This document shows, in pieces, positions 15,297 through 42,271 of a DNA stretch of 63,228 nucleotides. The position numbers and the translations under genes were made by a program. The notes beneath the pieces were generated by a model, which saw nothing but the letters and a program-made list of their open reading frames with translations, was not told the origin of the DNA and made no database searches. Origin of the DNA: Nemertoderma westbladi (taxonomy: Eukaryota > Animalia > Xenacoelomorpha); NCBI GenBank assembly GCA_032718475.1, contig JAUCBJ010007588.1:1-63228 (forward strand), given 5' to 3'. The stretch's first letter is position 1; every line of letters starts with the position of its first letter.

Positions 15297-15304
15297 CCGC
15301 TCCC
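15297..15304 (-). other. Short polypurine tract (GGGAGCGG), outer element
   Basis: Abuts the 3' LTR; identical in the inner element at 27267-27274. Confidence 0.7.
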
Positions 15305-15374
15305 AGAAAATGGGATTTGAGTCTATAAAATATACAAAATCACAGTTTCTAATATACGTAAATACTCTAAACAG

Positions 15375-16400: not shown

Positions 16401-16445
16401 CCGGGCGCGATAGGCTGAATCTCCTCAGATTCTAGGCATATTGGT

Positions 16446-16823
16446 TCATCTTCCCAGTCTGTTACGAATAGAATTTTCGTGATCTATTCTCGGTTTATCG
16501 TTACGACTCCGCTGGGTATGATATTTAAATAGAACCATTTCCCTTTCGGTGTCTACATCGTCCGTATCATGTAAATCGATAGGATGGCCGGTAGTTAGGA
16601 AGTCCATATACGTACTATTACGATGCGTATAGCGAGCGGTGAATTTTCGATAGTCCAATTCACGCGTAAGTTGCTCTTGGGACATCGGCGGTTCGATATA
16701 ACGACCATCGTCCTCCGTAATGGTTGGATCGGCTTCACCGCGTATCAAGCTATCCACAAATGCTTGTAAAGGTAGAGTATATCGCTCCCTGATACCAAGA
16801 TCATCTTCTATCAACTCCGTCAT
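16446..16823 (-). CDS. Accessory ORF-A, 125 aa, unknown function (outer copy)
   Basis: About 10 aa differences from 30051-30428, with many third-position changes. Confidence 0.75.
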   Translation of the reverse strand: MTELIEDDLGIRERYTLPLQAFVDSLIRGEADPTITEDDGRYIEPPMSQEQLTRELDYRKFTARYTHRNSTYMDFLTTGHPIDLHDTDDVDTEREMVLFKYHTQRSRNDKPRIDHENSIRNRLGR

Positions 16824-18449
16824 ATCTGCTATCTGAGTTTATTAATATCGAAATGAGTTTATGTTTAGGCGAGCGGACATCGCTGCCTACCTCTCTTTGC
16901 CCCCGGACAGTGGGATTCTCAGCGCCGATGTACCGTCGTCGCGGTGTTTACGCCAACATGTAGCAACAGCACGACAACGATAACCGGCACAAGTCACTCC
17001 ACTGTCCGTCCCAAAGGCTTGAATCCACTTTAGGTTCTTTCTATAGGAGAGTTGGGCTACTTTCACAATTGCGACTAGCTACTGTAAACATACTTTAGCA
17101 GTAACATTCACCTATAAACGCACAAATTCCACACAACTGTCACCAATTGTACACATACAGGCCATTTGTCCGTTAGTCAGTGCATTCCAGAATGTCACGT
17201 TATTACTGTGTATCCTTGGATACTAACAGTGTGTTATGTATTCTCTATGCTATGCAATGGGACAAGCTTTCTATTGTTCTCTTAACTTGCTTCTAATTCT
17301 AGCGTGGGTGTTGCTATGGTGACATTATGGAATGCTAGCGGTAGAATTAGGGTAATTCTCATGCATACAGATCTGGGATGCTATTTAATAATAATTCTTT
17401 AATTGTCAATATCCTCTTTATGCATGATTTTATTAATTTTATCGGCTATTGACTATATGTTGGAGATTCTCGCACTCTAATACACTCAATAGGATGAATC
17501 TCCGCTCCCATGATCTATTAATTAATGGAATTTTGGGAATGTTATAAATTGCACAAAATGACAATTTATGAATTTCATTTAAAATATGAATTTAAATCTA
17601 TTCCTGTGAATTTTATTATTTGATGTTAAAATTGACACAATTTTTATTCCAGAGCATGTCTGGGGACTGAGGATCCTTAATTCTATAAAATTGTCTTTTA
17701 AGAGTATCGGTAAGTGCTGCGATATCTTAATTGACTAGAAATTTTAAAGGATCTGAATTTTACAGATTTTAATAAATATTAAATTAATATTTAAGATGGG
17801 CACCGATTTATTCCAGAACTTGTCTGGAGACGTTAACCATTGATTCTAGAATTTGTCTTTCAAGTATATCGGTGGGTGCCGCGATATCTTAATCGACTAG
17901 AATTACAGATGGTCAAAAGGTTTAACAGATTTATTTGCGTTTCATGCTACTGTTAGAGGGACATCACGCTACTATATGTATTATTATATATGGTATGAGA
18001 GCAATATCGCACGAAGCAATGTCAGTGTGAAGAGGCAAGTCGTTTCCAAGGTCTACCCAGAGCTTGGTTTAGCCGAGACACGAGGATCTGAACTTTGCAT
18101 TCCTAATACTCTGCCTACCAATAATACTTGAATATAGTAGGAGCTTTATTGTACTTTAATAAGTACGGACATTTCATCTTACTGTAGTCACGTATTTATA
18201 ATAGGATACGGACAGTAAGGAAAGAGAAAAATTATTATTTCTCGCCGTCGCACTAAATATATTATAAGTAATTACGTACGTAATAAACACTAATATATTG
18301 CACTAATCTACTAAATAATCACTAAAATAACATTCTACTAAATAAAATTAAAGAAAACGATTATAATAAAATTACATAATAATACATACATAAATATAAA
18401 ATAAAAACAAATATAAAATGATATAGTCACACGCCCACTCCATATGTTA

Positions 18450-21400
18450 TTACGTTATGGAGTCCCTAGATATTTGTCGGATTAGGGAAGTGGTCGTAGG
18501 AAGAGTATCTTGCCTTCCATAGTTTCCGGACAGTTTTCGGTCTCTTTCCAGTAAACATAAACGACTAGCTGGTCGATTGAGTTGTTGTGTTACTTTCTCC
18601 GCTCCCTTGGCCTGTCTAATCTCCACCGGGGTAAGATGAGGAGGCCATTCTTCTTCTTCTTTACTTAAGAAGTCGGATCCACCTAACCAGCCTGGAGTAT
18701 CTATCAGTTCTTGAGGAGTTGCTCCTCTGGAAGCGATGTCGGCTGGATTAATCGTCCCAAGGCAATGTCTCCATTGATCTACATTGGAGTTAATATCGTC
18801 ATTATCTGAGGAGTATGGTGTTCCCTCAGTTGGATCGTCCACATCACTGCTCTCCACTTCCCATTCCTTTACTTGGTATACCTGTTGTTGAGGTAATCTC
18901 TCTTTGAGAGTTCTACGGGAAGGGCCAGTAAAGTACCAACCTACTCTAGTTCTTACCGCATAGGTTTGTAGTGGCTGCGGTTGAGCAGGCCGTTTCTCCA
19001 ATGTCTCGAGCGCCTCATGCGCGTTTTGGCCGATGAGTATTTGCACTCCAGGATAATCTGTCTGGAATCGAGGTATCTTAAGATGTTGAATGCTCTCATC
19101 CTCGTCCCAATTATAAAGGTCTGCTTGAGTAGTAGCGAAGTTCTTTATAGCCACCATTTTTACTGACCTTATACTTTGTGCTCCTAATTTATCCTGGGGG
19201 GTGGACAACGCACCTACATAGTAATCTGCCGTTATGGTAGATTTCCAAACTTGCATAATTCCGGACATATTCAACTTAGTTTGGAATTTGGGTTGTCCAG
19301 CAAAGATATCTTCGGCTAGTTCTTGATCGATGAATGTTCCTGTGCTGCCGGAGTCAAGGAGGGCGTTCACTATGTAACTTTTGGTAGGACCGTGAACTCT
19401 TACCTGCACTACAGGAAATTCTCTGATTCCTACGTTGGAAGTTGGAGCTTTCCAAGATGGTTGTCTGTCAAAGGTAGTTGGGGGGAACTCATTGTCGGTG
19501 TCCTTTTCGTAAGTAAGTGCTCGATACACCACGGTATTGATTAGGTAACAGGATTCGTTGGCGTCGGAGAATTCGTCAGTATAGAATCCTTCCATCTCAG
19601 ATTCTTGATCAGTGTCATTTACATCACTGAATTGGACATGTAGTTCGGGCTCACTTACCTGACTCGGGTTGTTTCGTTCGAACTCACTGTGTAACAAGAT
19701 GTGATGTTTCGCGCCACACTTTGCACACTTTACGTCGGAGTAACAGGTTCGCCGTTGGTGTCCTGATCTGAGGCAATTATAGCATAACCGCTTATTCCAC
19801 AGGACTGTACGTCTGTCTACAAGGGATTTCTTTAGATATTCAGCACACGCACTCAAACGGTGGGGCCCGTCGCACAGCGCACATTTTGGTTTGATGTTAC
19901 TCACCTTACCTTGGGTAACGTTATGCACTCTCGTTCTTTCTTCGGGCTTTCTTCCGTGCATTCTGTTAGGAGACTGAGGAGGGGTCTTGGCAACCTGTTC
20001 TCTCCTATCGTTGGTTCGAGCCTTGTATTTACTTACGTCTTTTGAGGTTTTGCCAACGTAGTAAGATCGATCAGTGTCTTTCCTGCTGTCCTCTTCTTGA
20101 GAAGCTTGGCTTTCGCCGTCGTCAGTATAACACACTGGTATTATCCTTCTCCTAGAAACGGGTTTCTCACTTACCTTATTTTCCGATGTTTTCTCTCTGG
20201 ACTACTTTATGAGTTGTAATTTTACTTCACTATCTAAGAAGGACATGAGATCAGCCATGGTAGGGCCTCGTCGTTGCTGCTCATTCATGTACAACACTTT
20301 CTTGTCCCAGCGTGTACATACTCCACCCTTTGGTAAAGTAGAGACTACGGCTCCAATAACCATGGAACTCTGATATTCATGAGACTTACCTAACCAGTCC
20401 AATTGTCTACAGCGCTTGTGTCCTTCTGGGCTCCTCCCCGAGGCGCACCCACGAGGCGGACACCTTTCCACCACCCCTGGGGCCAGTCCGACTCCGTTTT
20501 TATCAGACCGGGCCGGAGGGTAGCCCGATGCTTCCCGGGTTCAATTTTCAATCCCCCGATCACACTGGCACAGCTCGTCGTGTGTAGCCGAACGAAGTAG
20601 AAAAATTCGCCTACTGTCAACTTACTGTGGCCTGACTGTACATTGAGCCAACTCAGAGAGTCAACCGGCGGGTGGACCAGTCGATAGCGATCGAGCATCA
20701 AGGTCGCCCTTGAGCCAAACCGACGGTCTTGTCCCAAGTGGGCTTGCGCTACCCAACATGGAATATTGACACGTTTTCACCCGCCTCGCCGGCAGTATTG
20801 AGGGGAAGTCGGTTCCGCAAACAATACTGACTAGCTCGAAAGCTAGGAACAAGTCACCACTTACCAGTCACTGTACACGTGTACTCAATAGATGCTCACG
20901 AAATCAAGTACACAACGGTAAACACAAATCTGACGCATACCATGCACACACAGAGGACATAATCGGGGAAGACAAAATCGGTGACAAAATCAGAGGGGAC
21001 AAAATTGTATCGACTAATAAAGAGTCTTGAGTACTTTATTTTACCGACAGGGTAAAATAACTTTGTGTGCACAAAGTATGCTGGGGCGCAGTAAAATATG
21101 GTCCTACTAATAACCGGCGGCGACTGAACCAACCGGCAAGGTTTCCCACACTCACTCGCAGTGGCCACACACACGCTCACATATACCACGTACACACACA
21201 AACCACAGATCACACTAAGCCACCACCCCTAATGTGTACAGGACTGGCAGTACGGCAACAGGCCGACTAGACGGTACCACGGCACCATGTTGATTCATGG
21301 TTCGTAAGACACGAGGGCCTTCAGTAACTCCCTTGCACTATAGATTCAATTTAACGTGCCCCCAGACCCTCACGAGTCCGCCGCCGCCTGTTGGAGACAC

Positions 21401-23577
21401 CCCTATAGAGACCTCACCTCCTTAGGCATCTCCTGAATCTCATCGGAAAACTCTATAATCCCGCTACTAAGGAAGTTTCGGGGGGCTACTAATTTTGCAT
21501 ACAAATACTTAGCTATGTTATCCTTGTTACCATACCTGATGTTTAATGTATCACAAACTTGTCTTAATCCTTCTGGATGTCCAATAAACTTTAACGCCAT
21601 TAACTTGGGAGGTCCTTCCAAGCACTTGATGAGGAACCTAAGTTTCTCTCCGTTAGATAGTACAGAGTTCTGTATGCTGTCTTTGTAATATTCATTGAAA
21701 GGTAACCATTTCATCTCATCTCCATTGAATTTGACGATCTCTCCCACTTTAACCGCTTGGCGGGCTTCTGTTCTAGCCATCTGACGCGTAAAGCTTTCTT
21801 GGGCCATCGTGTTATTTAATATCGAATTATCGGTATATAAATTTCCTGGATTATTATCAGGTCTATAGGGAATATCATTAACAACAGGTTTATAATCACC
21901 CTTAATAGGGTTTGCTATAGGAGTTTCTACTTCACTAGCAGTATAGATGCGTGTAGGCTCCACACCTTGCGCATGTAATACTTCAGACCTAACAGGTTGA
22001 CACAATGTTACAGGGGGTATTGGTATACCCTTTTGTATATTGACTAATTTGTCGCGTTCCAGCGCGATACTTTGTTGCACTTCTTGCAATTCTGCCCTAC
22101 CTTCCCTTACTGTTCCCTTAAGTTGGTAGACAGTCTCCTGCATCTGTCCGAGCAGGAGATTCATCCCCCGCCGTCCCTCATCTACCCACTCGACCGCCGA
22201 AGCGGGAGTCGCCAACATTGTAGCGGGCTGACGTGGGACGACGGGAGACAAATCTTTGATTTCTCTCTCAGCTTCCAGGACAGGGATATTCTCATGGACT
22301 GTTCTACCGGGTACAGGCAGTGTAGTACTGTGTAAAGGGAATTTAGAGTTAAGCTCTGGAAGTACAGGGGTCTCTAGCACAGTAGTGGCTTTGGGAACGA
22401 CAGGCCCAATTATTTCAGGCTCATCAACTATTGTAGGGAGTCTTTTGACCTTAATAATTTGGTCTGTAGGTTCTATACTACCTAAGTCTGGGCTAGCTAG
22501 TTGTCTTCTAACCGCTGGGGGCAAATCAGGCAATTTGTGATGGTGAGATGTTTTTCTACGCCTGCTTAGACGAGATCTATTTCCTCCGCCTTCAGGATCG
22601 GTGGTTTCGCTTTCCTCTGATGAGGTGTATCCCTGGCGTTTGGGAGTAGATCTTCTCATCATCTGCATGTGACTAGCAGTTAACTGATTATTTATGTTGT
22701 CTTGCGTCTCTTGAAGATTTTCCAACTCCAGTTGTGTGGTCTCCTCAGACGCTCTCCATTCTGCTTCTGCTACTGCTTTGGCCGCCTTTCTTTCTGCTTC
22801 TGCTTCTGCCATTGCCGCTGCCTTCTTTCTTTCCGCTTCTGCTTCGGCCATTGCCGCTGTTACTGCAGCTGCCTTTCGGTCCTCTATCCGTTTTTTCTTT
22901 ACTTGTTCTTCTTGGACTCTAACTAGGCGGAGTTTTTCATCAAATTTAGCTTGGTTTGCAGCTAACATTTCCGCATCGATTGCGTCCAACACAAGCTTGG
23001 TTCCTTCACTATTAGGGCGAAGTCCAGACAGTCGTCTCCTCAACTCTTCGTCTCCTATGAATCGCTGATAGTCTGACAGATAGATGTCAATGGCGTCTCT
23101 AGTTCGCGGCTTCTCTGCTGCTGTTAATTCGCTTTCCACTTCGCTTTCCACCTCGCTTTCCACTTGAGAAGAAGTGGCGTCGGTTGATTCTTCATAGGTT
23201 GGCCGCTCATCATAAACCGTATCCGCCATCTTCGCTCCGCGTTCGGGCGTCCGCTCAACAGTATCCGAACTACTGGAGCTATCGGGCCGCTGAGAACTAG
23301 GTTCTTGGCTAGGAGGTTGCTGCTGTTTTATAGCTTCTTCTTGATCCCGCTTGACTTGGGCCCGAGTGCCTATGGCAGACCAACGGCGCTTCACTAACTT
23401 CGCAAATTGCGAAATCGCTTCTACCAACCTAGGTTCTGACACAACCACTGCAGGGGTTGCCCTTCTTACAGTATGAGGGGTTTCAGACCTCGGTCTGGGA
23501 TTCTCTACACTTTGATCTGAGAAACAGGCTGTTGTTTCTAGGAGACTATCTGACAGAGTTTGCCTTGTGTCAGCCAT
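18450..23577 (-). pseudogene. Outer gag-protease-(delta pol) ORF, broken by a 1-kb insertion and a TAG at 20202-20204
   Basis: Colinear with inner gag: KFNGDEMKWLPF, three Zn knuckles, ALLDSGSTGTF. Then jumps to WRHC.GTINPADIASRG and finally to QQLNRP..RLCLLE. Confidence 0.9.
20413..21427. mobile_element. ~1-kb GC-rich insertion in outer gag, no target duplication
   Basis: Inner copy reads gtctgcag-atctcc; outer reads gtctacag-[insert]-atctcc. No TIRs, poly-A or TSD visible. Confidence 0.8.
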
Positions 23578-25831
23578 GTTTGATTGTACAGTTGAATGCC
23601 TACTGCTATATTACAGTTAAAGCAAGTCTAGTAATTCAGTATCACTGTTAGCCTAATAATTAATTACCGATACTGCTACTCAGTGTAGCGTGATATATAT
23701 ATATATATTAGAATACCGGTATGCTTATAATATATATATAAGTATTATTACAGACTAGATTTGTCACAGAGTACCGGTATATAAATTTAGCACAAATATA
23801 TATAAATATATAATAGGCCTATCGGGAATACCGGTATACAGCTGACACTTATAGTATATATAAGTATAATTATTACAGACTAGAATTAATTACAGAATAA
23901 CGGTATGATTTCAGCCCAAATTTATAGAAATAAATATAATAAGCCTATGGTAAATACCGGTATGTCAATTATTTTAGAATAATTGAATTTCTGAATATTT
24001 TAGGGTTACTTGGTTACTTTAACTTACTTTATTACCGTTATTTAAGCAGTAGTCCGACTGATATGGAGACCTAGTTGTTGTATGGCAGGCCTACTATTTA
24101 TAAATCGTTTGAGTTGATTTATAATATATATATACCCGTTTAAAATGGGTTTTGTCAATATTTGAAATAAATGTTATTATTTCTGGGGTTCACTACACAG
24201 AAGCTGTGCGCTCTCAGTGAAGTGCTATTTATTGGACACTAAAACTGATAATTCTAATTTACCTAAGTTACTTAATACTACAAATTACTTACGATACGGG
24301 TGAGATTAAATCTCTAATTAAACTCAACAAAATATTACGTACGAAATTTTTAGGGTAATTTCACAGGAAGTCTACAAACCAGCCTAACAAAGGGTTAGAA
24401 TTCTGGTTATTACAACGGGCAGGGTACTACGGTATTTGAAACAATAAGTAGTAGTAAATATATTGCGCTGTCCAGATAGGAAAATACCACCGCCTGATGA
24501 CCTATAGCCGTATCGCTATAGGTACTACGTTATGTATCACGGAGTGTTCCTACCTAGAAGTTAATTACCGCGGACTACCAGATCCAACGTGCCTATTAAC
24601 CACTTTACAACACAAATATACTGCCTACACACTAATTACTTTCGGAAAGCACTGTACACTAAACCCTAAATTAGGTACAAGTACTGGTACAACAAATAAT
24701 CAGTAGTTAAATATACTTGAACAGTTAAAAGAACCACAGCATCTGCTGGAGTGACCGGAGCACAAAGTCACCAGTCTTTTCCTACGCCAAGCAGCCCGTG
24801 TAGTACCGGGGTTAATTTAACTATAACAGTATGTGTAACAAGCACAATTACTGTAGGAATAAACTTGGGGACATGAATGTTGCGAATAATCGCATAAACT
24901 CTGAATAATAAATATTACGCTACCCGTACAGAATACTCAAACAAAATACAAACCAAACGCTGGCAGACTACCATCAAGCCTAAATAAACTACAGTTGTGC
25001 AGATTCCAAAATGGTTAGTTAGTATGCGTTCTAACACGGTAGTACGACTTATTCTTTAAGAGGGGATTGACCTTACAGCTCTGGCTGCCCCAACTTACTA
25101 ACTGGCACTTTATCAGACAAACTCTACACACGCAGCAATCTCTTCAGACCTAATAATAGCTAGACAACAATCCAGCCTACAAAATATCTGAGTAATTACT
25201 ATTACGGTATCTGAACAGACCACACAAACAAACACAGGCCAAAACGTTGGCAGAATACTGTCAAGCCTAAATAAACTACAGTATGTGCAGATTCCAAAAT
25301 GGTTAGTTAGTATGCGTTCTAACACGGTAGTACGACTTATTCTTTAAGAGGGGATTGACCTTACAGCTATGGCTGCCCCAACTTACTAACTGGCACTCTA
25401 TCGGACAAACTCTACACACGCAGTAATCTCTCCAAACCCAACAACAATCCGACAACAGTCCGGCCTACAATTATCTGAACAATCTGAGCAGACTTACACG
25501 TCTTCAGCTCAATATTAACTTACATGTAAATAAAACCGACAGAAATAAGTAAAATCTCAATAAAAAACCAGGGCGGCCGTCCCTGATTAAATACTAAGAC
25601 CTACCGGTATACAATAATCAAAATCGAATAATACTAATGTACTTATACTGGAAGTACCGGTTAGGACAGTTGGGCCTACGGACCTACAGAAGTACCGGTT
25701 CTAGCAGTTGGACCTACGGACCTACAGCAGTACCGGTTCTGGCAGTTGGGCCTACTGACCTACAGAAGTACCGGTTCAGGTTTACCGGTCGACCGGTACT
25801 TTCAACTTTATTGCTTACTGCAATAAAGTCA

Positions 25832-25842
25832 ATAACTGTTAT
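25832..25842 (-). promoter_or_regulatory. Non-tRNA primer-binding site, outer element (AUAACAGUUAU)
   Basis: Directly abuts the LTR terminal CA. Exact complement of LTR positions 44152-44162 and 14783-14793. Confidence 0.7.
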
Positions 25843-26083: not shown

Positions 26084-27266
26084 TGTTCGCGCTTTCAGAC
26101 CTTTGGCAGTTTAACCCGCCAAATTATGATGTCTTCTAGATAATAAATCACTTTTAGTCTATGACAAGTATTTAATTCACTACACTAGTCGAATCCAATC
26201 TGTGCGCGATCATTCACCCGCTGGATATACCCGGGAGATTGGGTTCGACGGCTTAATCTTATTGCTATGTAAGCCTAATGTATTATTCGACTGACAGTAT
26301 TATATAATCTCTGACAATATTATTCACCTTCGGGGAATATTAACAGTTCCTTTAGGACGTGGCGCTCTATCTATACAAACAGAGTTATGACTTAAACTAC
26401 TCACAACGATATGGCTTAGTTATAATTCACATATATGGCGCATTCTTTAGGAAATGCTTCGTTATCAGTATCACTCATACACAATGCTGCACAATACTGC
26501 ACACTGATCTGCCGATCTTCACTGATTTTAGTTATATATAAAAGGAACACGGACCGACTCATGTAGGGTCTATCAAATAACATTAGATTCACTTCAAACC
26601 ACTTTAACATAAGTCACAATCGTTATATGTAACCTTTCTCTCTTACCTTCGGTATATCAAGAATATTGGGTTTCGGGGTTATTTATCGTTATTCCAAATA
26701 TAATAATTCATCAACCATATTATGAAGAACTGACAGTAAATAGCAGTATAACAATATAAAAGTATGCACAGTGATTCAGTGTGCGTTAAGTTCATTAGTT
26801 TATTTTGAGTTGTTGATTGTTGTGATCAGTTTGGTTTGATAACGGATATATGCCCTTTATAATTAAGCCTACTAGTGTTAGACTAAAACAGGAAAGCACA
26901 AAATATTTACAAGCCGTTCTCTCCTGGCTCAGGAAAGAAAGACCAACAACACTGAAAACTGATAAGAATAACCTTATTTACAAAGGCTTCCACCCAACAC
27001 AGAGAAAGAGCATAAAGATAGGAAAATTCAGTTCAGTAGATCTGTGATAGGTCGAAATCAAAATCAACTCAAATTCTATTGGCAGATACTTTCCCAAGCT
27101 GGTTGGACAATCAAACGTAGCCCAGATCCCTTCGCACAGCGAATCAGCCAATCAGCCGGTAGCTTGCGCTATTCGAGTTATAGATCCCTTTTTAGAGTAT
27201 TCTAGCGACTGGGGGGGAACTGGTTAGCAAGGCAAACGAATCAGTTATCCCACAAAAGCTTTTACA
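26084..27266 (-). repeat. 3' LTR of inner element
   Basis: Direct repeat of 42463-43645 with TG/CA ends. Confidence 0.97.
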
Positions 27267-27344: not shown

Positions 27345-29120
27345 TTAGTCTTTCTTGCGCGGACGGCGTTTATGCAGTTTTTTAAAGCTAGCAAGAGTCC
27401 TTTTCTCTTTGGGGCGAGCCACTTTACGAGGAGGGCTGTAGCTCCTAGGCGAAGGGTGCAATATAATTGCATCAGAAGGTGCAGGGTTACGATCGGTATA
27501 CCCGCCGGTCGAAGTACCTGGTTGATTAATATCAACCTCAGTGGAGCGAGGTCTAACGGCCTTTAGAGCGCGTCTCAGGACAGCAGCTCCTACGGGTCCT
27601 TGACGGGTCGTCTGGACACTAGCGGTGGGTGGACCGTGAGTGGTAAGGAACTTTCTCGGTTTAATGGTTCTCTCCAGCTCGCGTTCTCGGGTTCGATATT
27701 CATATGGTCGCCGAGATATTTCCTGTAGTTCAGGATGCGAGTTCACAAAGATGTCGCCATACTCAGGGTCCTGACGGATAAAATTGATCAGGTGATATGT
27801 GGTTATATCATTAGGGTTAACGTTTCTAAGGTATTTCCTGACAAACTTGGTGGAAATACACTCACCAACACGCTTCATTAACTCGTAACTTGGTACGCGT
27901 GTTTTCTGTTCAATTGACGCGAATAGATAAGGATGGAACGCGTAAACTCCCTCGTAAGCTCGTCCAGGGTAATAGCGATGTCGGGATTCGCAATGTAAAT
28001 CGGCGTTCGCTTCCCAAGCTCGGATGTATCGCAGGGTGATCATCTCGTCTACGCTCTCTAAATCGCGATTAAAGGGACAATTGTAACTTTCATGTCCTTT
28101 AAGTTGGCAGTAGTGACATTGAGTCATAAATTGTGGGCAGACGGCAAATATATGAGAGTTATTAAGCCGGCAATAAGCACAATATATTTCCATCATCGGT
28201 TGTTCGAGGAAATAGGAACAAGGTACGCTCGAGTCTAGAGGAGTGAAGTGGTCTCTCGATGCGCATAATCGACAACGTTTTCGGGAAACGTAGTTGGCGT
28301 GTCGATAATCGTACGCTGTGAGACGCTGTGGACCTTGATACCACTCTATGACATAATCATTGTCACTGCTCCGGGAAGCCGTAGGTTGAATCGCTTCTGA
28401 TTCAAAGCATACTGGTTCATCCTCCAGCTGCATAGACGAAGTGGGTGCGTCGGTTTCCGTAAGTGGACCCACTGTCTGTATTTCCACGACAGAATAACCT
28501 GTAGATATTCGGGGTCTTTGTATAACGGATGAATGTAGGTTCTGTATACAAACGTCTTGAAACACGGCAAATCCAGCGCTACTCAGTTTCTCCGCAGCTG
28601 AGTCTCTAAGACTGAGCTTGGTCAGCGCGCGGTCCTTGAACTGACTATCGACGTTACGGAACGGAGTCAGAAAGCGCCGGAAACATTCGAAACGTATGAA
28701 CTTATTGTGTTCGTCTAACTTGGCGAGTTTAGTTCCAAGTATTAACGGGTGAGCGCGTATGGTACGACTGCACACATCGGCTAGCCAACTGGCAAGTGCT
28801 GCGTTTTCAAAGATCGTGTATATAGCTAAGGAAGGGCGAAGTGGAACACTCATAAAGCTATATACTGCACCAGGCGCAGTTAATGGTCCATCAAAATATA
28901 AACGAGAGTAATGATCTCCATATACTTGCTGGTAATTGGTAGGATTTCCAACTTTGAAATTCCATCCATATTCTTGAAAGGCAAGATGTCCGATGGACGT
29001 CCGTTGTACTTTAGTAATGTCGATGGGTGTATTGGCATACATAGTGCGAAAGAAACCTCGGCCTTCGGCCCAAGGGGCAATCAGCTGAGTATCAACGAAG
29101 GGATATGGAATGTTCTCCAT
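27345..29120 (-). CDS. Accessory ORF-B, 591 aa: Cys/His cluster, CCHC knuckle, basic C-terminus; not env-like
   Basis: CRLC....H, CAYC.....H....C, CHYCQLKGHESYNC (CX2CX4HX4C). Ends KKLHKRRPRKKD. No signal peptide or TM helix evident. C-terminal half conserved in outer copy. Confidence 0.85.
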   Translation of the reverse strand: MENIPYPFVDTQLIAPWAEGRGFFRTMYANTPIDITKVQRTSIGHLAFQEYGWNFKVGNPTNYQQVYGDHYSRLYFDGPLTAPGAVYSFMSVPLRPSLAIYTIFENAALASWLADVCSRTIRAHPLILGTKLAKLDEHNKFIRFECFRRFLTPFRNVDSQFKDRALTKLSLRDSAAEKLSSAGFAVFQDVCIQNLHSSVIQRPRISTGYSVVEIQTVGPLTETDAPTSSMQLEDEPVCFESEAIQPTASRSSDNDYVIEWYQGPQRLTAYDYRHANYVSRKRCRLCASRDHFTPLDSSVPCSYFLEQPMMEIYCAYCRLNNSHIFAVCPQFMTQCHYCQLKGHESYNCPFNRDLESVDEMITLRYIRAWEANADLHCESRHRYYPGRAYEGVYAFHPYLFASIEQKTRVPSYELMKRVGECISTKFVRKYLRNVNPNDITTYHLINFIRQDPEYGDIFVNSHPELQEISRRPYEYRTRERELERTIKPRKFLTTHGPPTASVQTTRQGPVGAAVLRRALKAVRPRSTEVDINQPGTSTGGYTDRNPAPSDAIILHPSPRSYSPPRKVARPKEKRTLASFKKLHKRRPRKKD

Positions 29121-30050
29121 ATTCCGAAAGTCGTATGCCTAATATGTCTTCCATTGATGGTAGTGGTAAAGAGCAGGGGAAGACCTATGTCGTATTCAGA
29201 AATATTCCGAAATACGATCTCAGTAGGAGGATTGTTACATTCGAGGACTATCTCCAACTGAATTTATCCCCAGTGCGATAAGGGAACAACCAGTTCAATG
29301 CCTCAGTTGTTATACATAAGATTATAAGATTTATATCTCCAATCATTGAGGGAGGTGAACAACCAGATTTATGACACACAATGGTACCAGTTGTTCACCT
29401 ACTAACTGCGTGTCCTTTCAGTCCTTGTATCACGGTTGTGAATTTAAGGAAATCCGAGGTGGTTGATTATCTAATCAACAACGAGAGGGTGGAAGTGGAT
29501 ATCATAAATATCAACAGAATGACACATGGACAGGAGATGCGGACACCAATATTAGCATACAAATAAACGGTAAGGGGGTGGAGGTTGATATCATAAATAT
29601 CAACAGAATATGACATTGACAGGAGGTGCGGACACCAATATTAGCATCCAGATGAACAGTAAGGGATGGGAGGTTTAGTGCTCGTTTCCCGAAGCTCCGA
29701 GCACGTTGGGAAGAGAAGGTGGGATGAAATATGTCGTATCTTTAGTAACAACATATAAGAGGGTAAGAGGAGTAGAGAGGAGGGAGGATATTCGATAGTA
29801 TCCATAAGATACCACAATGGATGTGTTTTCCGTCACATCATCATTCATTCCTGCCTTTTAATTGTGACACTGATCACAATAATTACAGGAAAACGATGAA
29901 GGAAGGGAAAGTTACAGCCTCCCGAAGGAGACCGCCCGCGAGCACCCGTGCCCCGGGGAAAACTATTCACATTATGGACCCTGGACATTAACCCATGTCT
30001 CTTCTCCAGTGGTTCTCCTTTATTTGTTCGCATCAACCTTCTTCCACGTT

Positions 30051-30428
30051 CTATCCTTCGAGTTGATTTCGAATAGAGTTCTCGTGTTCTATTCTCGATT
30101 TATCGTTTCGACTCCGCTGGGTATGATATTTAAATAAAACCATTTCCCTTTCGGTGTCTACATCGTCCGTATCGTGTAAATCGATAGGATGGCCGGTAGT
30201 TAAGAAGTCCATATACATACCATTACGATGCGTATAGCGAGCAGTGAATTTTCTATAGTCCAATTCACGCGTAAGTTGCTCCTGGGACATTGGCGGTTCG
30301 ATATAACGACCATCGTCCTCCGTAGTAGTTGGATCAGCGTCGCCGCGTATCAAGCTATCGACAAACGCTTGTAAAGGTAGAATATATCTCTCCCTGATAC
30401 CAAGATCATCTTCTATTAATTCAGTCAT
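30051..30428 (-). CDS. Accessory ORF-A, 125 aa (inner copy)
   Basis: Conserved with 16446-16823, same ATG context TAGCAGATATGAC. Confidence 0.75.
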   Translation of the reverse strand: MTELIEDDLGIRERYILPLQAFVDSLIRGDADPTTTEDDGRYIEPPMSQEQLTRELDYRKFTARYTHRNGMYMDFLTTGHPIDLHDTDDVDTEREMVLFKYHTQRSRNDKSRIEHENSIRNQLEG

Positions 30429-32080
30429 ATCTGCTATACGAGTTCACCAATATTATAATGAGTTTATATATCGTTAGGCGAGCGGGCGTCGCTGCCTATT
30501 TCTCCCTTGCCCCCGGACAGTATGAGATTCTCAGCGCCGATGTACCGCTGTCGCTATACTTTCGCCAACGACGTAGCCGTACAACGACAACGATAACCGG
30601 CACAAGTCACTCAACTGTCCGTCCCAAAGGCTTAGATGTACTTCAGGTTTTCCTTGGAGAGTTAGGTTACTTTTACGATTGCGACTAGCTACTGTAAACA
30701 CACTTTAGCAGTAACATTCACCTATAAACTCACAAATACCACACAACTGGTCACAACTACGCACATTCGGGCCATTTGTCCGTTAGTCAATGCCTTCCAG
30801 AATGTCACTGTATTATTATGTATCCTTGGATACTAGTAGTGCGCTATTTATTCCCTATGCTATTCAATGGGACAAGCTTTCTATTGTTCTTTTAACTCCA
30901 TTCTAATTCTAGCATGGTTGTTGCTATGGTGACATTATGCAAAGCTAGCGGTAGAATTAGGGTAATTCCAATGCATACAGATCTGGGATGTTATTTAATA
31001 GTAATTCTTTAATAGTCAATGTCCTGTTTTATACATGACTTTATGAATTTTATCGGCTATTGACTATGTTTGGGAGACTTTCGCACACTCATATGCATAA
31101 TAAGATAAATCTCCGCTCCCTTGATCTATTAATTAATGGAATATTGGGAATGTTATAAATTGCGTAAAAATGGCAATTTATTAAATTCATTAAAAGGCAT
31201 GAATTTAAATTATTCCCTGAAATTTTATTATTTGATAATTAAATGGACATATTTTGATTCTAGAACATGTCTAGGGACACAAGATCCTTAATTCTATGAC
31301 AATTGTCTTTTTTAAGAATATCGGTAAATGCTACGATATCTTAATTGACTAGAATTGTTGAAGGATCTGAATTTTACAGATTTTGATTGATTAGATTTGC
31401 AAATATTAAATAATTAATATTTGAGATGGGCACCGATTTATTCCAGAACTTGTCTGGGGACGTTAACCACTGATTCTAGAATTTGTCTTTCAAGTATATC
31501 GGTGGGTGCCGCGATATCTTAATCGACTAGAATTACAGATGGTCAAAGGGTTTAACAGATTTATTTTGCGTTATACGCTACTGTTAAAGGGACATCACGC
31601 TACTATATGTATTATTTAATATACGGTATGAGAGCAATATCGTACGAAGCAATGTCAGTGTGAAGAGGCAAGTCGTTTCCAAGGTCTACCCAGAGCTTGG
31701 TTTAGCCGAGACACGAGGATCTGAACTTTGCATTCCTAATACTCTGCCTACCAATAATACTTAAATATAGTAGTGGCTTTATTGTACTTTAATAAGTACG
31801 GACATTTCATCTTACTGTAGTTACGTATTTATAATATAATACGGACAGTAAGGAAATAGAAAAATAATTATTTCTTCGCCGTCACACTAAATATAATATA
31901 AGTAATTACGTACGTAATAAACACGAATATATTGCACTATTCTACAAAATAATCGCTAAATAATATTCTACTAAATTAAATAAAACGATTATAATAAAAT
32001 TACATAGTAATACATACATAAATATAAAAATAATAAAAATAATATAAAATAATAGAGTCACACGCCCACTCCGAACGATA

Positions 32081-35000
32081 TTAAGTCGGGGAGTCCCTAG
32101 ATGTCGGTTGGATTAGGGAAGTGGTCGTGGGAAGAGTTTCTTGCTTTCCATAGTTTCCGGAGAGCTCTCTGTCTCTTTCCAGTAAACATAAACGTCCCAC
32201 CGGGCGATTGAGCTGTTGAGTCTCAAAGACTATCCCTGGTTTATTAAAGTTACGACGCATGACGACGAGCTCTACTGATCGCACCAAACCATCGCTCGAG
32301 ATATGAGTCTCGATGATACGTCCTGTTTGCCATCGCTTACGTGGGAGATCGGGGTCCACAATAAGCACCATGTCTCAAGCGCTGACGTTTTCTTGCTGCG
32401 CAAACCACTTAGTTCGAAGTTGTAGAGTGGGCAGGTAATGTTTCTCGAAATGGTCAGCGAAACGACGGGATAGCAACTGCATAAGTTGCCAGGTTCGACG
32501 GCAGTACTCGTCTCCGTCTGTGATCTCCGATCGTGGGAGCATGGCTACGGGTTTCTTCAGTAGAAAGTGCGCGGGTGTTAGCGCTTCCAGGGAATCAGGA
32601 TTTGAAGAGACTGGCATAAGCGGTCTTTCGTTGAGATAGGCGGCGATTTCCTCCATTAACGTCCGCAATAGTTCGTCGGTGAGATAAGCGCGACAAGGCA
32701 CAATAAAGTGGAACGCAGTCTTCACGCTCCTAATCAATCTCTCCCAACTTCCTCCCCACCAAGGGGCGTCGGCGGCGTTGAAGGTCCAGCTAGACGCTGT
32801 TATCCTTAGCTGATCGTCCACCTGTCTTTTGTTCCAGTCCTTTACGTAGGCTTGAATTTCGTTGTTGGCGCCAATGAAGTTCGTTCCCTTATCCGATCTC
32901 ATCGTGTTACTGGTTCCGAAGCGAGCGATCTGTCGTCGTAAACTCAACACGAAGCTGTTGGTGGATAGATCGTTTACCATATCGAGATGGATAGCTCTAC
33001 AAGTCATACAAACGAAGATGACACACCATCTCTTGACTATAGTCCGGGCACGATATACTTCAATAGGGCCAAATAAATCCACACCGGTATTAGTAAAGGG
33101 TGGTTCGTAGAAGCTTACTCTTTCCCTAGGTAATTCTGCCTCTCGCTGTGTCAAAGGCCTACTGAATGCTTTCCTACAGGGTATACAGTTCCTAAGAACT
33201 TGGTTCAGAGCCCTACGGGGTTTATAAAAATAGTAGCGAGTTCGAATTTCGCTCAGAACTCGTTCTCTACCAGCATGGTACAGTTTGCTATGAACATCTA
33301 CAATTATCTTGATTTGTATGTCAAGATTTCTAATGAGGATGGGAAACTTAGTGTCAAAGGATAATGGGGCGTTGGTCAGCCTACCTCCAACACGTATTAA
33401 CCCATCTATCATGGTACTAGAGAAGCGATCCCTTAAGCGCATCTGTGGATTTCTTAACAACAGGAAATACTTATCGGAATCCTCATAGCATTGTAGGAGT
33501 CTCAGCATCTGTTTGTTGGTTTCATCATGCTCCTGGTAACTGATCTTCTCATTTAGAAACCTGTTGGATATCTTGTATTTAGGAAGATCTTTAACAACAT
33601 GGACTCGTGCAGATGTTGATGGAGCATCATCACTATTGGTCTTTGTCCCGGAGTAACGATAATGAAAACATCGTTTCAGATAGGTGACAGCTTTACAGAG
33701 CCGATTCCAGGAACTGTAGTGACGTATCGCTCTCTGCAAGAGAGGTGAGAGTCCTTGCGAAATATCTGGTATTCCAGATTTCCAATCCTTGTCACGGATT
33801 TCCAAGACTTCTTTAGTCGTGGCGGTGGGTTTCTGATCCAAAGCATCCTCTCCGGAAGTAAATAATACAGATAGATCAACCGCAGGTTTAAACAACTTCG
33901 ATTTACTCGCTCGAGTTTTGGGTTTAACTTTCTCCGCTCCCTTGGCCTGTCTGATCTCTGCTGTTGTGAGATGGGGAGGCCATTCTTCTTCTTCTCTGTA
34001 GAGAAAGTCGGGTCCTCCTAACCATTCGGGAGTATTTACCAATTCCTTTGGAGTCGCTCCTCGGGACGCGATGTCTGCTGGATTAATCGTTCCGGGGCAA
34101 TGTCTCCATTGGTCCATCGTCGTGCGACTAAGTATGATGGCTACCCTGTTGGTAACGAAGACGCTGAACTGACAGACTTCATTGGTTATATACTCTAACA
34201 CGAGTAAAGCGTCGGTCCAATAGACAGTTTTCTCTAATGGATAGTCAATCTGTTCGGTTACATTCCGGCCGATGGCTGTAGCGTATAGAGCCGCTTTTAA
34301 CTCCGCTCGAGGAACTTTCAACTTGTTGTTGATTAATGCTTTAGAAGTAACCAAGGCGACTTTGATTCCATCCGGAGTTTCCACCCTTAGATAGGCTACT
34401 ATACCTATTCCCATATCGCTGGCGTCTCCAAACACATGGAGTTGATAGGAATACGTAGGGAGAACATGACAAAAATATGAACGGGAAATTATAAAATCCT
34501 CGATAGCTGGCAGAGAATCTTCCCATTTCATCCACTTCTTCAATAATTCTCCCTTAAGTGGATCGTCCCATGAGTGGTTTTCAAGCCACATTTGTTGTAC
34601 CAAACTAAGAGCAATCAATATAACTGGGCTAATAAATCCCAATGGATCGAAATAAGTGCTCAGTATACTTAAGCAAATCCGTTTGGTTCGAACTGGATTA
34701 TCTCGCTGTTTTAGCTGGAAAAACAGGATATCTCGCTCTGTGTCCCATTTCAAGCCGAGTGTCTTGGTTTCTGGCAGATCATCTTTGATCAAATCGAGAT
34801 CTTTCGCTCCTCGATCTTCCGCAGGGATCGACTCCAGAAACTCACGGGAGTTGCTGGTGAATTTGGTTAATCGAAACCCACCTCTTTTTAAGCACTCTAC
34901 CGTTCCTTTAGCGACCTCAATGGCTTCATCAACTGATGGGAGGGACTTCAGATTGTCGTCCATGTATATGTCTCTCTTGATGTTGTCGATCACTTCCTTA

Positions 35001-38000
35001 GAGAATGCCTCTCGGTTGTCCTCTGCAGTGGTACGCACTACCGAACAGGCGTTGGAAGGGCTTGAGATTATCCCAAAGGCCTGGATAGTCATCCAGTACT
35101 CCACCGGTTTCTGGTTGAGGTCTCCTTCGGGCCACCACAGAAATCGTAGACTATCTCGATCCCTATCTAACACCTTGACTTGTAAGAACATGCCTTCTAT
35201 ATCGGAGGCGAAAGCAATCGAATATTGTCTCAATCTTAAAAGAATTCCCAACAAAGATTGAAGCAAGTTGGGTCCGGGTAATAATTCAGAGTTAAGGGAT
35301 TGACCCATGTAAAGAGCGGAGCCATCAAACACTACTCTCACTTCATGTGGCTTACCGGGTTTAGGAACGTAATGGTGGGTTAAGTAATACGTTCTTTCAG
35401 TCACAGGTGTTTCTTCCGGTACTCTCTCCGCGTATCCCTTACTAATAAATTTTTCCAGCTGTGTTTGATACATTGCTTTAGCTGAAGAATTAGCCGTAAG
35501 GCGTCGATGGAGTTGCGCGATTCTTTTTTCCGCCAAGGGTCTGTTATTGATGAACTTCGGTTCTCTCTTGCGGAAAGGTAGACCGACTTCATACCTACCT
35601 TGATCTTTGAGGAAACGTGTAGTTGTCTCTTGGATCTGCTTGGCCCTTTCTTCTTCCACCGATAAGGCTTTATCGTAGGAATTGGGCTCTACCGCCTCTT
35701 GCGTAAAGAATCGTACAGCATGTTCATCTCGAGTCTTGGCATTGCAACGCTCAATGACGTCATTTAACTCGTCGTTATAAGCTTCTCATTCAGATGGATA
35801 GAGAAGTTGACATAAGTTAACTTGGTTTTGCCAAGCCTCGTTTTCCTTAAGGAGATCGATGGTATTCTCCTCATCAAAAAGCTGGTGAACGTCGTCGTTA
35901 TCTGAGGAGTATGGAATTCCCTCAGTTGAATCATCTCCCTCACTAGCATCATCTTCCCATTCACTCACCTGGCAGACTCTCTCTTGCGGTAGTCTTTCTC
36001 TGAGTGTTCTACGGGAAGGGCCAGTAAAGTACCAACCTACTCTAGTTCTTACCGCATAGGTCTGTAGGGGCTGCGGTTGAACAGGCCGTTTCTCTAATGT
36101 CTCCAGCGCCTCATGCGCGTTTTGGCCGATGAGTATTTGCACTCCAGGATAATCAGTCTGGAATCGAGGTATGTTAAGATGTTGGATGCTCTCATCCTCG
36201 TCCCAATTATAAAGGTCTGCTTGAGTAGTAGCGAAGTTCTTTATAGCCACCATTTTCACTGACCTTATGCTATGTTCTCCTAGTTCGTCCTGGGGGGTGG
36301 ACAACGCTCCTACATAATAATCCGCTGTGATTGTAGATTTCCAAACTTGCATAATGCCGGACATGTTGAGCTTAGTTTGGAACTTGAGTTGTCCAGCAAA
36401 TATATCTTCGGCTAGCTCTTTGTCGATGAATGTTCCTGTGCTGCCGGAGTCCAGGAGGGCGTTCACTACATAACTCCTCTTAGGTCCGTGAACCCTTACT
36501 TGTACCACAGGAAACTCTCGGATCCCTACATTGGAAGATGGCTCTTTCCAAGATGGTTGTCGTTCAGAAGTAGTTAGAGTGAAGTCGTTGTCTGTATCTT
36601 TTTCATAGGTGAGTGCTCGATACACTGCGGTATTTATCATGTAACAGGATTCGTTTTCGTCGGAGAACTCGTCTGTATAGAATCCTTCCATCTCAGATTG
36701 ATCAGTGTCGTTCACATCACTGAATTGGACATGTAGCTCGGAATCACTTACCTGATTCGGACTATTTCGCTCGAATTCAGTGTGCAATAAGATATGATGT
36801 TTCGCACCACACTTTGCACACCTTATGTCAGAGAAACAGGTACGCCGTTGGTGTCCTTGTCTGAGGCAATTATAACATAACCGCTTATCCCACATGACTT
36901 CGCGTCTCTCCGTTAATGACTTCTTCAGGAATTCATCACACATATTTAAACGGTGGGTCCCGTCACACAGCGCACATTTCGGTTTGATGTTACTTACCTT
37001 ATTTTGAGTCACATTGTGTACACTTGCCTTTTCTTCGGGCTTTCTCACCGGAATTCTCTTGGGAGACGTGGGAGGAGTTTTTCTTACCTGATCTCTCCTG
37101 TCATTTGTTCGAGACTTGAATTTACTTACCTGATCTTTAGGCATTTTATTCACGTAATAAGATCTCTCAGTGTCTTTCCCGCTATCTTCTCCTTGAGAAG
37201 TCTGGCTTTCGCCGTCGTCTGTATAACACACTGGTGTTACCTTTCTCCTAGAGAGGGGTTTTTTACTTACCTTGTTTTCCGGTGTCTTCTCTCTGGACAG
37301 TTTCAGGAGCTGTAATTTCACTTCTCCATCTAGGAATAACATGAGATCAGCCATGGTAGGGTCTCGTCGTTGTTGTTCCATCATATATAACACTTTCTTA
37401 TCCCAGCGTGTACCTACTCCACCTTTCGGTAAAGTAGAAGCCACTGCTCTAATAACCATAGTGTTCTGATACTCATGAGACTTACCTAGCCAATCTAATT
37501 GTCTGCAGATCTCCTGGATCTCATCGGAAAACTCGATAATCCCGCTGCTAATAAACTTTCGGGGCGCTACTAACTTTGCATACAAATACCCAGCGATGTT
37601 ATTCCTATTACCATACCTGATGTTTAGTGTATCCCAAACTTGTCTTAATCCGTCTGGATGTCCAATAAACTTTAACGCCATTAACTTGGGAGATCCTTCC
37701 AAACACTCGATGAGGTATCTAAGTTTTTCTCCATTAGATAGTACAGAGTTCTGTATGTTATCTTTGTAATATTCATTAAAAGGTAACCATTTCATCTCAT
37801 CTCCATTGAACTTGACGATCTCTCCCACCTTTACTGCTTGCCGGGCTTCGGTTCTAGCCATTTGACGCGTAAAACTTTCTTGGGCCATCGTGTTATTTAA
37901 TATCGAGTTATCGGTATATAAATTTCTCGGATTATGATCAGTTCTATATGGAATATCATTATCAACAGGTCTATAATTACCCTTAATAGGGTTCACTATA

Positions 38001-40216
38001 GGAGTTTCTACTTCGCTAGCAGTATAGATGCGTGTAGGCTCCACACCTTGCGCATGCGATACTTCAGACCTAACAGGTTGACACATTGTTACAGAGGGTG
38101 GTGGTATACCCCTTTGAGTATTTACTAATTTATCGCGTTCTAGCGCGATACTTTGCTGCACTTCTTGCAACTCGAGCCTACTTTCCCTTACTGTGCCCTT
38201 GAATTGCTGGACAGTCTCCTGCATCTGCCCGAGCAGGAGATCCATCCCCCGCCGTCTCTCATCCACCCATTCGACCGCCGAAGCGGGAGTCGCCAACGTT
38301 GTAGCGGGCGGACGAGGGACGACGGGCGACAAATTATGAATATTTCGCTCGGGGTCCAGAACCTGAACTGTCTCTTGGGCAGTTCTACGGGGCACAGGTA
38401 GCTTAGTGCTATGCAGAGGGAATTTAGAGGTAGTCTCAGGGAGCACAGGTGTGTCTATCACCGAAGGGGTGATTTCCAGAACAGGCCTAATTACTTCAGG
38501 CTCATCTACTATAGTAGGGAGTCTTTCTATTTTAATTATTTGGTCTGTGGGCTCTGTACTACCTAAGTTGGTGTTATTTAGTTGCCTTCTAACAGCTGGA
38601 GGCAAATCAGGCAATTTCTGTCGGTGGAATGTTCTTTTACGTCTGCTTAGACGAGATCTATTTCCATTGCCTTCAGTATCGGTGGTATCGCCTTCCTCAG
38701 ATGATGTATATCCCTGTCTTTTGGGAGTAGATCGATTCATCATCTGCATATTACTAGCTGTTAACTGTTTATTTATGCAGTCTTGATTCTCCTGAATGTT
38801 TTCCAATTCTAATTGGATGGTTTCTTCAGCCGCTCTCCGTTCTGCTTCTGCCACTGCCTCTGTCGCTTTTCTTTCCGCTTCGGCCGCTGCCATTGCCGCC
38901 TTTCTTTCTGCTTCTGCCGCTGCCTTTTCCGCTGCCGCTTTTCTTTCAGCTTCGGCCGCTTTTGCCTCTGCCGCTGCCTCTGCCGCTGCCTCTGCCGCTG
39001 CCGCTTTTCTTTCTGCTTCTGCAGCTACCACTGCTGCTTTCTTTCTGTCTTCTATGCGTTTTTTCTTTACTTGCTCTTCTTGGACTCGTGTCAGGCGGAG
39101 TTGTTCATCAAATTTGGCCTGATTCGCAGCCCTCATTTCCACATCGATGGCATCCAACACAAGCTTGGTTCCTTCACTATTAGGGCTAAGTCCCTCTAAC
39201 CTTCTCCTCAACTCGTCATCACCTAAAAAACGTTGATAGTCTGACAGATAGATGTCAATGGCATCCCTCTTATGCGGTTTCTCTGCCGTCGCTTCACTTT
39301 CCACTTGGGAAAAAGTAGCGTCTGTTGATTCTCCATGGGTTGAGCGCTCCTCCAGCTGAGTTTTCCACTGAGCTGTTCCTTGAACCTGGCGACTCACCCG
39401 TTGAAACCACGTTTTTACGGCAACTTGCAACGACGTGTCTTGTCTTCGTTTAGAAGCCTCCTCAAAGGCCGATAATATTAACCTGATTCGTAGAATTCTT
39501 TCTCTTACTTGATAAAGCAGCTGTCCCTGCTCTTGAGGTCCCTGAGGTTGTTGTAACAGTTGTTTTTCTACTCGCTCCATAGAGCTGAAGAATCCCTGTG
39601 CGTATCCGGCTGCGGACCTCTTCCACACAGCGGGATCTATGGTTTCTTTGGCTATTCCCATCCGGTGTATGTCTTCCCAGGCAGCTTCTGATAAATCAAA
39701 CGGGAGTCCGGGTCCGGGGAAGTTCCATTGCGACTCGACCATGGACTTCAGTTCTTCTCTTGTGTATCCAGCATAACTATCTCTAGTTGAACGCTGGCTT
39801 CTCGCCCAATCGATCTGGTGTTCTTCCACAGCGATCAATAACCTGGTGAGTACGGCTGCAGGAAGGATGAGAAGGGGATCCGAATAAACCGCATCCGTCA
39901 TCTTTGCTCCGCGCTCGGGTGTCAGCTCTACAGTATCATCACTACTGGAACTGTTGGGCCGCTGAGAAATAAGTTCTTGTCTCGCGGGTTGTTGCTGTTC
40001 TGCTGCTTCTTGGTCCCGCTTGACCTGAGCTCGAGTGCCTATGATAGACCTACGATGTTGGACCAGCCTAGGTTTGGTTATTACTACAGGAGGGATGACC
40101 TTCCTCACAGTGGGAGGTGAACTGAACTTACGACTAGACGGTTCTACGCCTCTATCTGAGTCGCAGATAGTTACATCTAATAAACTGTCTGACAGGTTCT
40201 GCTTAGTATCAGACAT
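32081..40216 (-). pseudogene. Single-frame BEL gag-pol polyprotein (2712 codons) with two in-frame TGA stops
   Basis: ORFs 35786-40216, 32375-35659 and 32081-32371 share one frame. Three Zn knuckles, protease LLDSGS, RT YMDD, RNase H HVFGDAS, integrase HHCC with GVDLFGP / SDKGTNF / GGSWERLI. The second stop replaces the Gly of the conserved GD.V motif. Confidence 0.93.
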
Positions 40217-41519: not shown

Positions 41520-42110
41520 AATCGATAAATAAATATTACGCTACGCGTACAAACTACTCAAACAAAATGCAGACCGAACACTGACAGACTACTATCAAGC
41601 CTAAACAAACTACGGTATATGCAGACTCCGAAATAATTAGGTAGTATGCGTTCTAACCCAGTAGTACGACTTATTCTTTAATTGGGGGTTTACCTTACAG
41701 CATTCGCTGCCCCTACTTCCTAACCGTTCTTTATCGGACAAGTGATCTACACACGCTGCAATCCGTTCAGACCTAACAACAGCCAGACAACTATCCAGCC
41801 TACAAATTATCTAAATAAATATTATACGCTACCCGTACAGACTTACACAAACAAAGTACAGACTAAACGATGGCAGACTACTCTCAAGCCCAAATAAACT
41901 ACAGGACATGCAGACTCCGAAATGATTAGGTAGTATGCGTTCTAACCCAGTAGTACGACTTATTCTTTAGTTGGGGGTTTACCTTACAGCATTCACTGCC
42001 CCTACTTCCTAACCGTTCTTTATCGGACAGGCTCTACACACACTGTAATCCGTTCAGACCTAACAGCAATCAGACAACAGTCCAACCTACAAATTATCTG
42101 TACAATCTGA
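41520..42110. repeat. ~290-bp tandem duplication in the long leader (counterpart at ~24900-25480)
   Basis: Block tagtatgcgttctaacccagtagtacgacttattcttta occurs twice in the inner leader; a homologous block occurs twice in the outer leader. Confidence 0.8.
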
Positions 42111-42271
42111 TCAGGCTTACATGCCTTCTGTTCAATACTGGCCTACAAATAAATAAAACTGACAGAAATAGGCCTAAGTAAAATCCCAATAAAAACCAGG
42201 CGTCCCCGATTAATTATTAAGACCTACCGGCTTATAAAGATCAAATCGAATAATACTGCTGTACTTATACG

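Follow-up and report, generated by a model that had tools for sequence, protein, structure and literature searches.

The BEL/Pao retrotransposons (Belpaoviridae) have been described as simple, tRNA-primed elements with a gag-pol(-env) organization. Members of the family range from 4.2 to 10 kb and use tRNA-Arg or tRNA-Gly as primers (PMC8742986, ICTV profile). Env-like third genes are on record for this family (PMC8742986), those of Tas and Cer7 in the available part of PMC554778 and that of Atlas virus in the accessible text of PMC9094657. Non-envelope extra ORFs are known from Gypsy and plant elements. According to the accessible portion of PMC5408684, the bdelloid rotifer elements Juno and Vesta carry family-specific sense ORF3s between pol and the 3' LTR, without transmembrane (TM) segment or envelope features and with a proposed auxiliary role; these are enzymes, a DEDDy exonuclease and a GDSL esterase, whose intragenomic variation is mostly neutral. 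In plants, SIRE eORF-3'F and the Ogre/Tat/Athila elements (PMC6317226, in the part available) combine heterogeneous, mostly orphan extra ORFs with large size and long non-coding regions. Giant elements are reviewed in PMC6431247, of which part was available, and a fusogenic sORF2 in MDG1-group elements is reported in a bioRxiv abstract.

We analyzed a 63,228-nt stretch of repeat-rich eukaryotic DNA (the window) that contains two nested LTR elements, both on the minus strand, to which all coordinates below refer unless stated otherwise. Judged from its sequence, the locus represents an oversized BEL/Pao lineage with a well-selected orphan accessory gene of putative RNA-related function. This gene, ORF3 (27345–29120), encodes a 591-aa non-envelope protein of the inner element. 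It shares position and family with the env-like third genes of BEL/Pao elements, from which it differs in lacking a signal peptide, a TM anchor and any match to fusion proteins, and in residing in a 17.6-kb element with two extra ORFs and no tRNA primer site. With the Juno and Vesta ORF3s it has the layout in common, but it is a zinc-knuckle protein with no enzyme match in a BEL/Pao host, and it evolves under strong purifying selection between subfamilies. The plant 3' extra ORFs belong to other superfamilies and another kingdom, and no sequence link between them and ORF3 was found. If a BEL/Pao lineage has two non-envelope genes under strong selection, a self-primer and close to double the largest size described so far, the family would come to include an organization like that of complex retroviruses. 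Limited literature searches retrieved no BEL/Pao zinc-knuckle accessory gene; a family with this ORF may already have been described.

The inner element (43645–26084, 17,562 nt) is inserted in the 5' LTR of the outer one (44665–14041). Its 5' LTR of 1183 nt (42463–43645) and its 3' LTR (26084–27266) differ by four mismatches and two gaps, and it is flanked by a 5-nt target duplication. The outer 3' LTR (14041–15296) and the outer 5' LTR, split by the insertion into 44665–43651 and 26078–25843, differ at 3 of ~1260 sites; here the 5-nt target duplication contains one mismatch. The LTRs of both elements have TG...CA ends. In the inner element, a gag-protease frame (35786–40249) with a DUF1759 region and a BEL-type triple Cys-His box ends at a stop before the reverse transcriptase (RT), and is followed by pol (32084–35785), which encodes RT, RNase H and integrase and in which an in-frame stop (32375–32377) sets off the integrase tail. 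Pfam searches detected Peptidase_A17 (E 4e-35), DUF1759 (E 2e-11), DUF5641 (E 4e-9) and Integrase_H2C2 (E 5e-7). The pol frame has YMDD and DAS motifs, and the domain order is PR-RT-RH-IN. The Gag triple Cys-His box, as defined for BEL elements in the available part of PMC554778, has its motifs at aa 1092, 1125 and 1144, the third ending in His. On the strength of these domains, their order, the Cys-His box and the LTRs, both elements are assigned by sequence to BEL/Pao. The 17.6-kb size and the self-complementary primer site are atypical, yet such traits describe the family and do not define it. A search for reference RTs retained none of six viral-contig candidates for pol and gave no match in the PDB.

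Both copies are broken: the inner one by the in-frame stops at 35786 and 32375, and the outer one by two deletions that removed most of pol. The stop at 35786–35788, between the inner gag-protease and RT, may reflect programmed read-through or mutation, which are indistinguishable because the outer copy lacks that site. The outer gag is interrupted by a 1015-nt insertion (20413–21427) in which no terminal inverted repeat was found and which has no second copy in the window. The leader is 2.2 kb long in both elements and contains a ~290-nt tandem duplication (40250–42460 and 23611–25842).

A tRNA-type primer site is absent from both elements, and Rfam and tRNA scans returned nothing. Instead, the first 12 nt past the inner 5' LTR (42451–42462), which lack the tRNA-type TGG, are exactly complementary to positions 417–428 of the element's own LTR (43218–43229), a candidate self-primer, and the first 11 nt past the outer 5' LTR (25832–25842) are exactly complementary to positions 504–514 of the outer LTR (window 44152–44162). 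The two LTR partners occupy homologous sites and show two compensatory pairs. Complements of such length are reached by 2 of 15,166 internal positions for the inner element (12 nt) and by 13 of 10,516 for the outer one (11 nt). When the inner primer site is paired with the outer LTR and vice versa, the matches drop to 7 and 6 nt, and the pairing energies change from −16.8 and −10.7 to −2.6 and −7.3 kcal/mol, respectively. Self-priming elements are recognized, in the available text of PMC6317226, by at least 10 nt of LTR complementary to the sequence 0–5 nt after the 5' LTR, and both elements carry such a complement. The pairing pattern indicates that this BEL/Pao lineage is probably self-priming. 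It resembles in this respect Tf1/sushi, Tcn1 and TAR/Houba, in which an own-LTR complement of at least 10 nt likewise follows the 5' LTR directly; those elements, however, are Ty3/gypsy or Ty1/copia in the same text. A TATA-like motif lies 11 nt upstream of the inner LTR partner site, closer than expected for a transcript start there. No paper on BEL/Pao self-priming was found in limited literature searches.

ORF3 is a real gene. It runs from 29120 to 27345 in the sense direction of the element and counts 591 aa from the ATG or 597 from stop to stop, whereas the plus-strand translation of the same interval has many stops. The inner 3' LTR begins 78 nt past its stop codon, in line with the original prediction of a 591-aa sense ORF ending ~80 nt ahead of this LTR. 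Its start codon at 29120 stands in a strong context, with A at −3 and G at +4. The annotated frame is the sole stop-free and the most conserved one, the other five containing 9–29 stops per copy. When the 197 inner–outer substitutions were placed at random 2000 times, it stayed open twice, and for the 232 N-terminal codons, which have no outer counterpart, the chance of an open frame is ~8e-6.

The outer element contains an open remnant of ORF3 (15375–16424, 349 codons stop to stop) that lacks the 5' part. A 1634-nt deletion, placed in a short similarity between its two breakpoints, fuses the end of an upstream ORF, ORF-a, to about residue 233 and is followed by a 1-nt deletion that is either real or an assembly error; two stops interrupt the single frame that ORF-a and the ORF3 remnant share. 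The outer deletions are not spliced introns, as they have no GT-AG ends. The two copies align over 343 codons and are 82.8% identical in aa sequence; of their differences, 132 are synonymous and 65 non-synonymous, and 46, 22 and 129 fall at codon positions 1, 2 and 3. By the Nei-Gojobori method with a bootstrap confidence interval (CI), dN is 0.086, dS 1.07 and dN/dS 0.081 (CI 0.052–0.119), values that come from two sequences only, with dS near saturation in parts. The three parts of the protein give 0.067, 0.057 (aa 361–490) and 0.115, and gag lies higher, at 0.22 and 0.16. A ratio near 1, which would have spoken against an accessory gene, is far from what is observed. No clear asymmetry in CpG decay is seen in the outer ORF3 (19 versus 15).

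The open C-terminal ~330 residues with many synonymous differences, noted earlier in the outer element, are confirmed, with the reservation that this copy is a broken remnant. The further claim, that the outer element kept ORF3 after losing RT and integrase, is not supported. A 62-codon RNase H remnant (18594–18779), stranded between the two outer pol deletions and unlikely to be functional there, served as a control: its dN/dS is 0.10 (CI 0.04–0.20) and its dS 0.89. Since this ratio is the same as that of ORF3, the low dN/dS arose while both lineages were complete, before the deletions, and selection on ORF3 after the loss of RT was dropped as an explanation; the outer LTRs, moreover, differ at very few sites, as given above. 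Three large outer gag-pol deletions (531, 1761 and 1704 nt; window 15297–25842) are all multiples of three, which happens by chance about once in 27. The outer element may belong to a non-autonomous family in which selection keeps frames open, and the deletion lengths are a hint in favor of the ORF3-retention idea.

The ORF3 protein carries three CCHC zinc knuckles at aa 283–348 (28077–28274), whose 12 ligands are all identical in both copies. Knuckle 1 (residues 283–301) has the spacing C-x2-C-x4-H-x9-C, knuckle 2 (314–328) C-x2-C-x5-H-x4-C and knuckle 3 (335–348) the canonical C-x2-C-x4-H-x4-C; the Pfam knuckle scores, with two variant motifs, fall under the curated cut-off. By their sequence, the Cys/His clusters are CCHC knuckles, which would bind zinc and RNA. 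They are followed by a predicted helical region (aa 350–490; 27651–28073). The basic tail (aa 560–591; 27348–27443) has a bipartite NLS-like or arginine-rich RNA-binding pattern, with 14 K/R and 2 D/E in 32 residues, and is basic in both copies; in both it fits the bipartite NLS pattern, of which a second match occurs at 416. An acidic linker lies around aa 225–260. The N-terminal region (aa 1–232; 28425–29120), absent from the outer copy, has no detectable relative: Pfam, NCBIfam, PHROGs, PDB and phage searches gave chance-level rows, and the ESM Atlas no usable one. Both AlphaFold models are of low confidence (pLDDT 34 and 39) and Foldseek gave nothing with them, which is no evidence either way.

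Hydropathy in simple windows peaks at 1.17 (19 residues) and, within the first 45 aa, at 0.87 (9 residues), and reveals neither a signal peptide nor a C-terminal TM anchor. The picture drawn in the original prediction, of three Cys/His clusters and a basic C-terminus without signal peptide or TM segment, is borne out by these motif and hydropathy scans. ORF3 matches no Pfam envelope or viral fusion family, has one N-glycosylation sequon and, in the inner copy, no furin site (R-x-K/R-R). A fusion glycoprotein, the finding that would have overturned the accessory-gene proposal, was looked for, and neither its features nor a match appeared, so ORF3 was rejected as an envelope.

A four-row profile of the knuckle-helix module matched LIN28 (E 0.003), Air2 (E 0.014) and retroviral nucleocapsids (E 0.14–1.3) in the PDB; those to LIN28 and Air2 are weak, being due mainly to the Cys/His spacing. 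The neighbors in the ESM Atlas are all CCHC/AIR2-type eukaryotic proteins, with a top score of 0.86 that we treat as a lead only. These weak leads point to single-stranded-RNA-binding chemistry rather than to family membership. CCHC knuckle families of the LIN28, Air2 and nucleocapsid type bind single-stranded RNA, so RNA is favored over DNA as the ligand of ORF3. Air2, of the TRAMP complex, and LIN28 share with it closely spaced CCHC knuckles, but the likeness is confined to these: ORF3 has no cold-shock match, its module of three knuckles and a helix is unmatched in the two proteins, and no Air2/ZCCHC7 or LIN28 orthologue was among the homologue-search matches, which led us to discard orthology. 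An origin of the knuckles by duplication of the Gag nucleocapsid was likewise rejected: only Cys/His positions can be paired in the alignment, which spans a 14-residue gap, and the knuckle spacing differs.

ORF3, searched without filtering against 1.84 billion cluster representatives, returned one remote match, the singleton P0001 (E 3.6e-4). P0001 has two copies of a module made of three knuckles and then a helix in which the E, A-D, R, G and F columns are invariant, and the first ~50 aa of the ORF3 helical region are common to it; it has no basic tail. When the post-knuckle segment of ORF3 alone is compared, the score with repeat 2 is reached by 1 of 3000 shuffles, while that with repeat 1 is reached by 774 of 3000 and is not significant. 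The 3685-nt contig of P0001, L001, carries it as an intronless ORF (79–2025) with the modules behind an unassigned 200-aa domain; 1.3 kb of AT-rich DNA follow, and then the start of an acidic ORF (3384–3683). Within these 3685 nt there is no RT, nor any LTR-level or self-priming similarity to the two BEL/Pao elements. A purine run and then TGT occur past the ORF, which is only suggestive. A retroelement origin of P0001 is plausible; the contig might comprise the 3' gene of another retroelement, then an LTR and the beginning of gag. To the eye, P0001 has an N-terminus reminiscent of a degenerate DEDD fold, an impression that no tool supports.

Further homologues were sought at several levels. 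None was retained among 3742 candidates for ORF3 (lengths 325–1035), P0001 aa 295–633 recovered itself alone among 813, and the module profile A2 none among 223 (lengths 74–321); proteins above about 1100 aa were covered by the unfiltered search only. Locus scans retained 1 of 465 metagenomic stretches, which is the P0001 contig, 0 of 118 viral contigs and 0 of 132 prokaryote genomes, collections that are mostly prokaryotic and in which absence therefore says little on animal genomes.

ORF3 is not the sole extra gene. About 5 kb follow pol in the inner element, and between pol and ORF3 we found a second conserved extra ORF, ORF-a (30051–30428), which the original prediction had overlooked. It encodes an acidic protein of 125 aa without TM segment, which gave chance-level rows only in Pfam, NCBIfam, PHROGs, PDB and phage searches. 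Its copy in the outer element (16446–16823) yields a dN/dS of 0.095. A conserved AG stands just ahead of its ATG, and a TATA-like stretch lies ~40 nt upstream. Pol and ORF-a are separated by a non-coding spacer that is ~10% divergent between the two elements, but the difference falls to 2.5–4% at 31422–31821, compared with a nearby dS of 0.36–1.07. This conserved stretch is a candidate cis-acting RNA element, or else a candidate trace of recombination between the two lineages. A 47-nt repeat is present in the conserved spacer (31310–31534), and an 89-nt tandem duplication lies between ORF-a and ORF3 (29473–29650).

Our leading reading, held tentatively and with a little less than even confidence, is that the ORF3 product is an accessory protein that binds RNA in the nucleus and acts on the transcript of its own element. 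The protein would be made from a subgenomic RNA, spliced or internally started, and would enter the nucleus via its basic tail, where its knuckles would bind zinc and the element's RNA, possibly at the conserved non-coding stretch 31422–31821. It may shield the ~17-kb transcript from nuclear decay or aid its export, in a role like that of Rev/Rex and with a chemistry like that of Air2/LIN28. Help of this kind is plausible because the element exceeds the size range of its family so widely and has a long region after pol. The basic tail may bind RNA instead of serving as an NLS, and the main activity could reside in the unexplained 232 N-terminal residues, which make up 40% of the protein. Compared with the original prediction of a nuclear nucleic-acid-binding regulator, the conserved non-envelope gene, the knuckles and the basic tail stand, with RNA favored over DNA, while the nuclear site and the regulatory role are what we infer. 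In its widest form the proposal is speculative and, taken whole, rather doubtful: a complex, self-priming 17–18 kb BEL/Pao lineage whose accessory region comprises two genes, one of which, ORF3, would found a new family of nuclear RNA adaptors, built of a triple knuckle and a conserved helix, that bind a conserved post-pol response element and override nuclear RNA surveillance. Such a Rev/Rex-like circuit would have arisen independently of the retroviruses.

A longer spliced gene might also start in ORF-a or in the short frames at 29857–29678 and 29263–29084, with the 591-aa frame as its final exon and further domains in the true protein, an arrangement that we consider somewhat unlikely and that is compatible with the nuclear RNA-binding reading. 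The open frame starts directly after an AG that follows a pyrimidine-rich stretch, and in the outer element ORF-a shares its frame with the ORF3 remnant, two stops apart; the ATG at 29120, however, has its strong start context, and the outer deletion lacks GT-AG ends and falls in a short similarity of its breakpoints.

It is unlikely that ORF3 counters silencing, by mimicking or titrating an Air2/ZCCHC-type nuclear exosome adaptor or a small-RNA factor and thus de-repressing the family in trans with no sequence-specific binding. The knuckle array does resemble that of Air2, and the available part of PMC5408684 discusses links of the DEDDy RNase D-like ORF3s of rotifer LTR elements to mut-7, EXD1 and Maelstrom, a setting into which the by-eye DEDD impression from P0001 would fit. 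Neither ORF3 nor P0001, however, has a sequence match to that fold at its N-terminus, and ORF3 is more constrained than Gag, whereas host-antagonist proteins often evolve fast.

The self-priming signature of both elements and the weak nucleocapsid matches of the knuckles would suit a second nucleocapsid-like chaperone in the particle, one that, for example, packages the long RNA or bridges ~770 nt to anneal the self-primer with the primer site. Such a function appears quite improbable, as Gag has its own triple Cys-His box, the ORF3 knuckles are spaced differently, and the separate frame leaves no obvious route into the particle. We give still less credit to a DNA-binding transactivator of the LTR or of an internal promoter, presumably comparable in role to foamy-virus Tas: adjacency to the 3' LTR, the NLS-like tail and the acidic linker are consistent with it, but CCHC knuckles usually bind single-stranded nucleic acid and no DNA-binding family was matched. 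Despite its orphan status and the lack of an outgroup element with ORF3 among our finds, a recently captured host fragment carried as neutral cargo, or an unrecognized envelope, is hardly credible, because a dS of ~1 with a dN/dS of 0.08 indicates long selection inside the element family and the protein has no hydrophobic segment, a single N-glycosylation sequon and, in the inner copy, no furin-type site.

Other repeats surround the two elements. A third LTR, on the plus strand at 1–1172, is 72–78% similar, has no matching primer site after it and is probably a solo or 3' LTR. Non-LTR retrotransposon-like frames on the minus strand (1877–5269), with an N-terminal Cys-rich region and without a significant Pfam match, are broken by a 24-nt tandem repeat; we take them to be of the CRE/restriction-like-endonuclease type. 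Long tandem-repeat arrays with 22-, 32- and 12-nt units extend over 6390–9305, 51000–58500 and 60800–62740, and the long frames in the first and the last of them are probably repeat artefacts.
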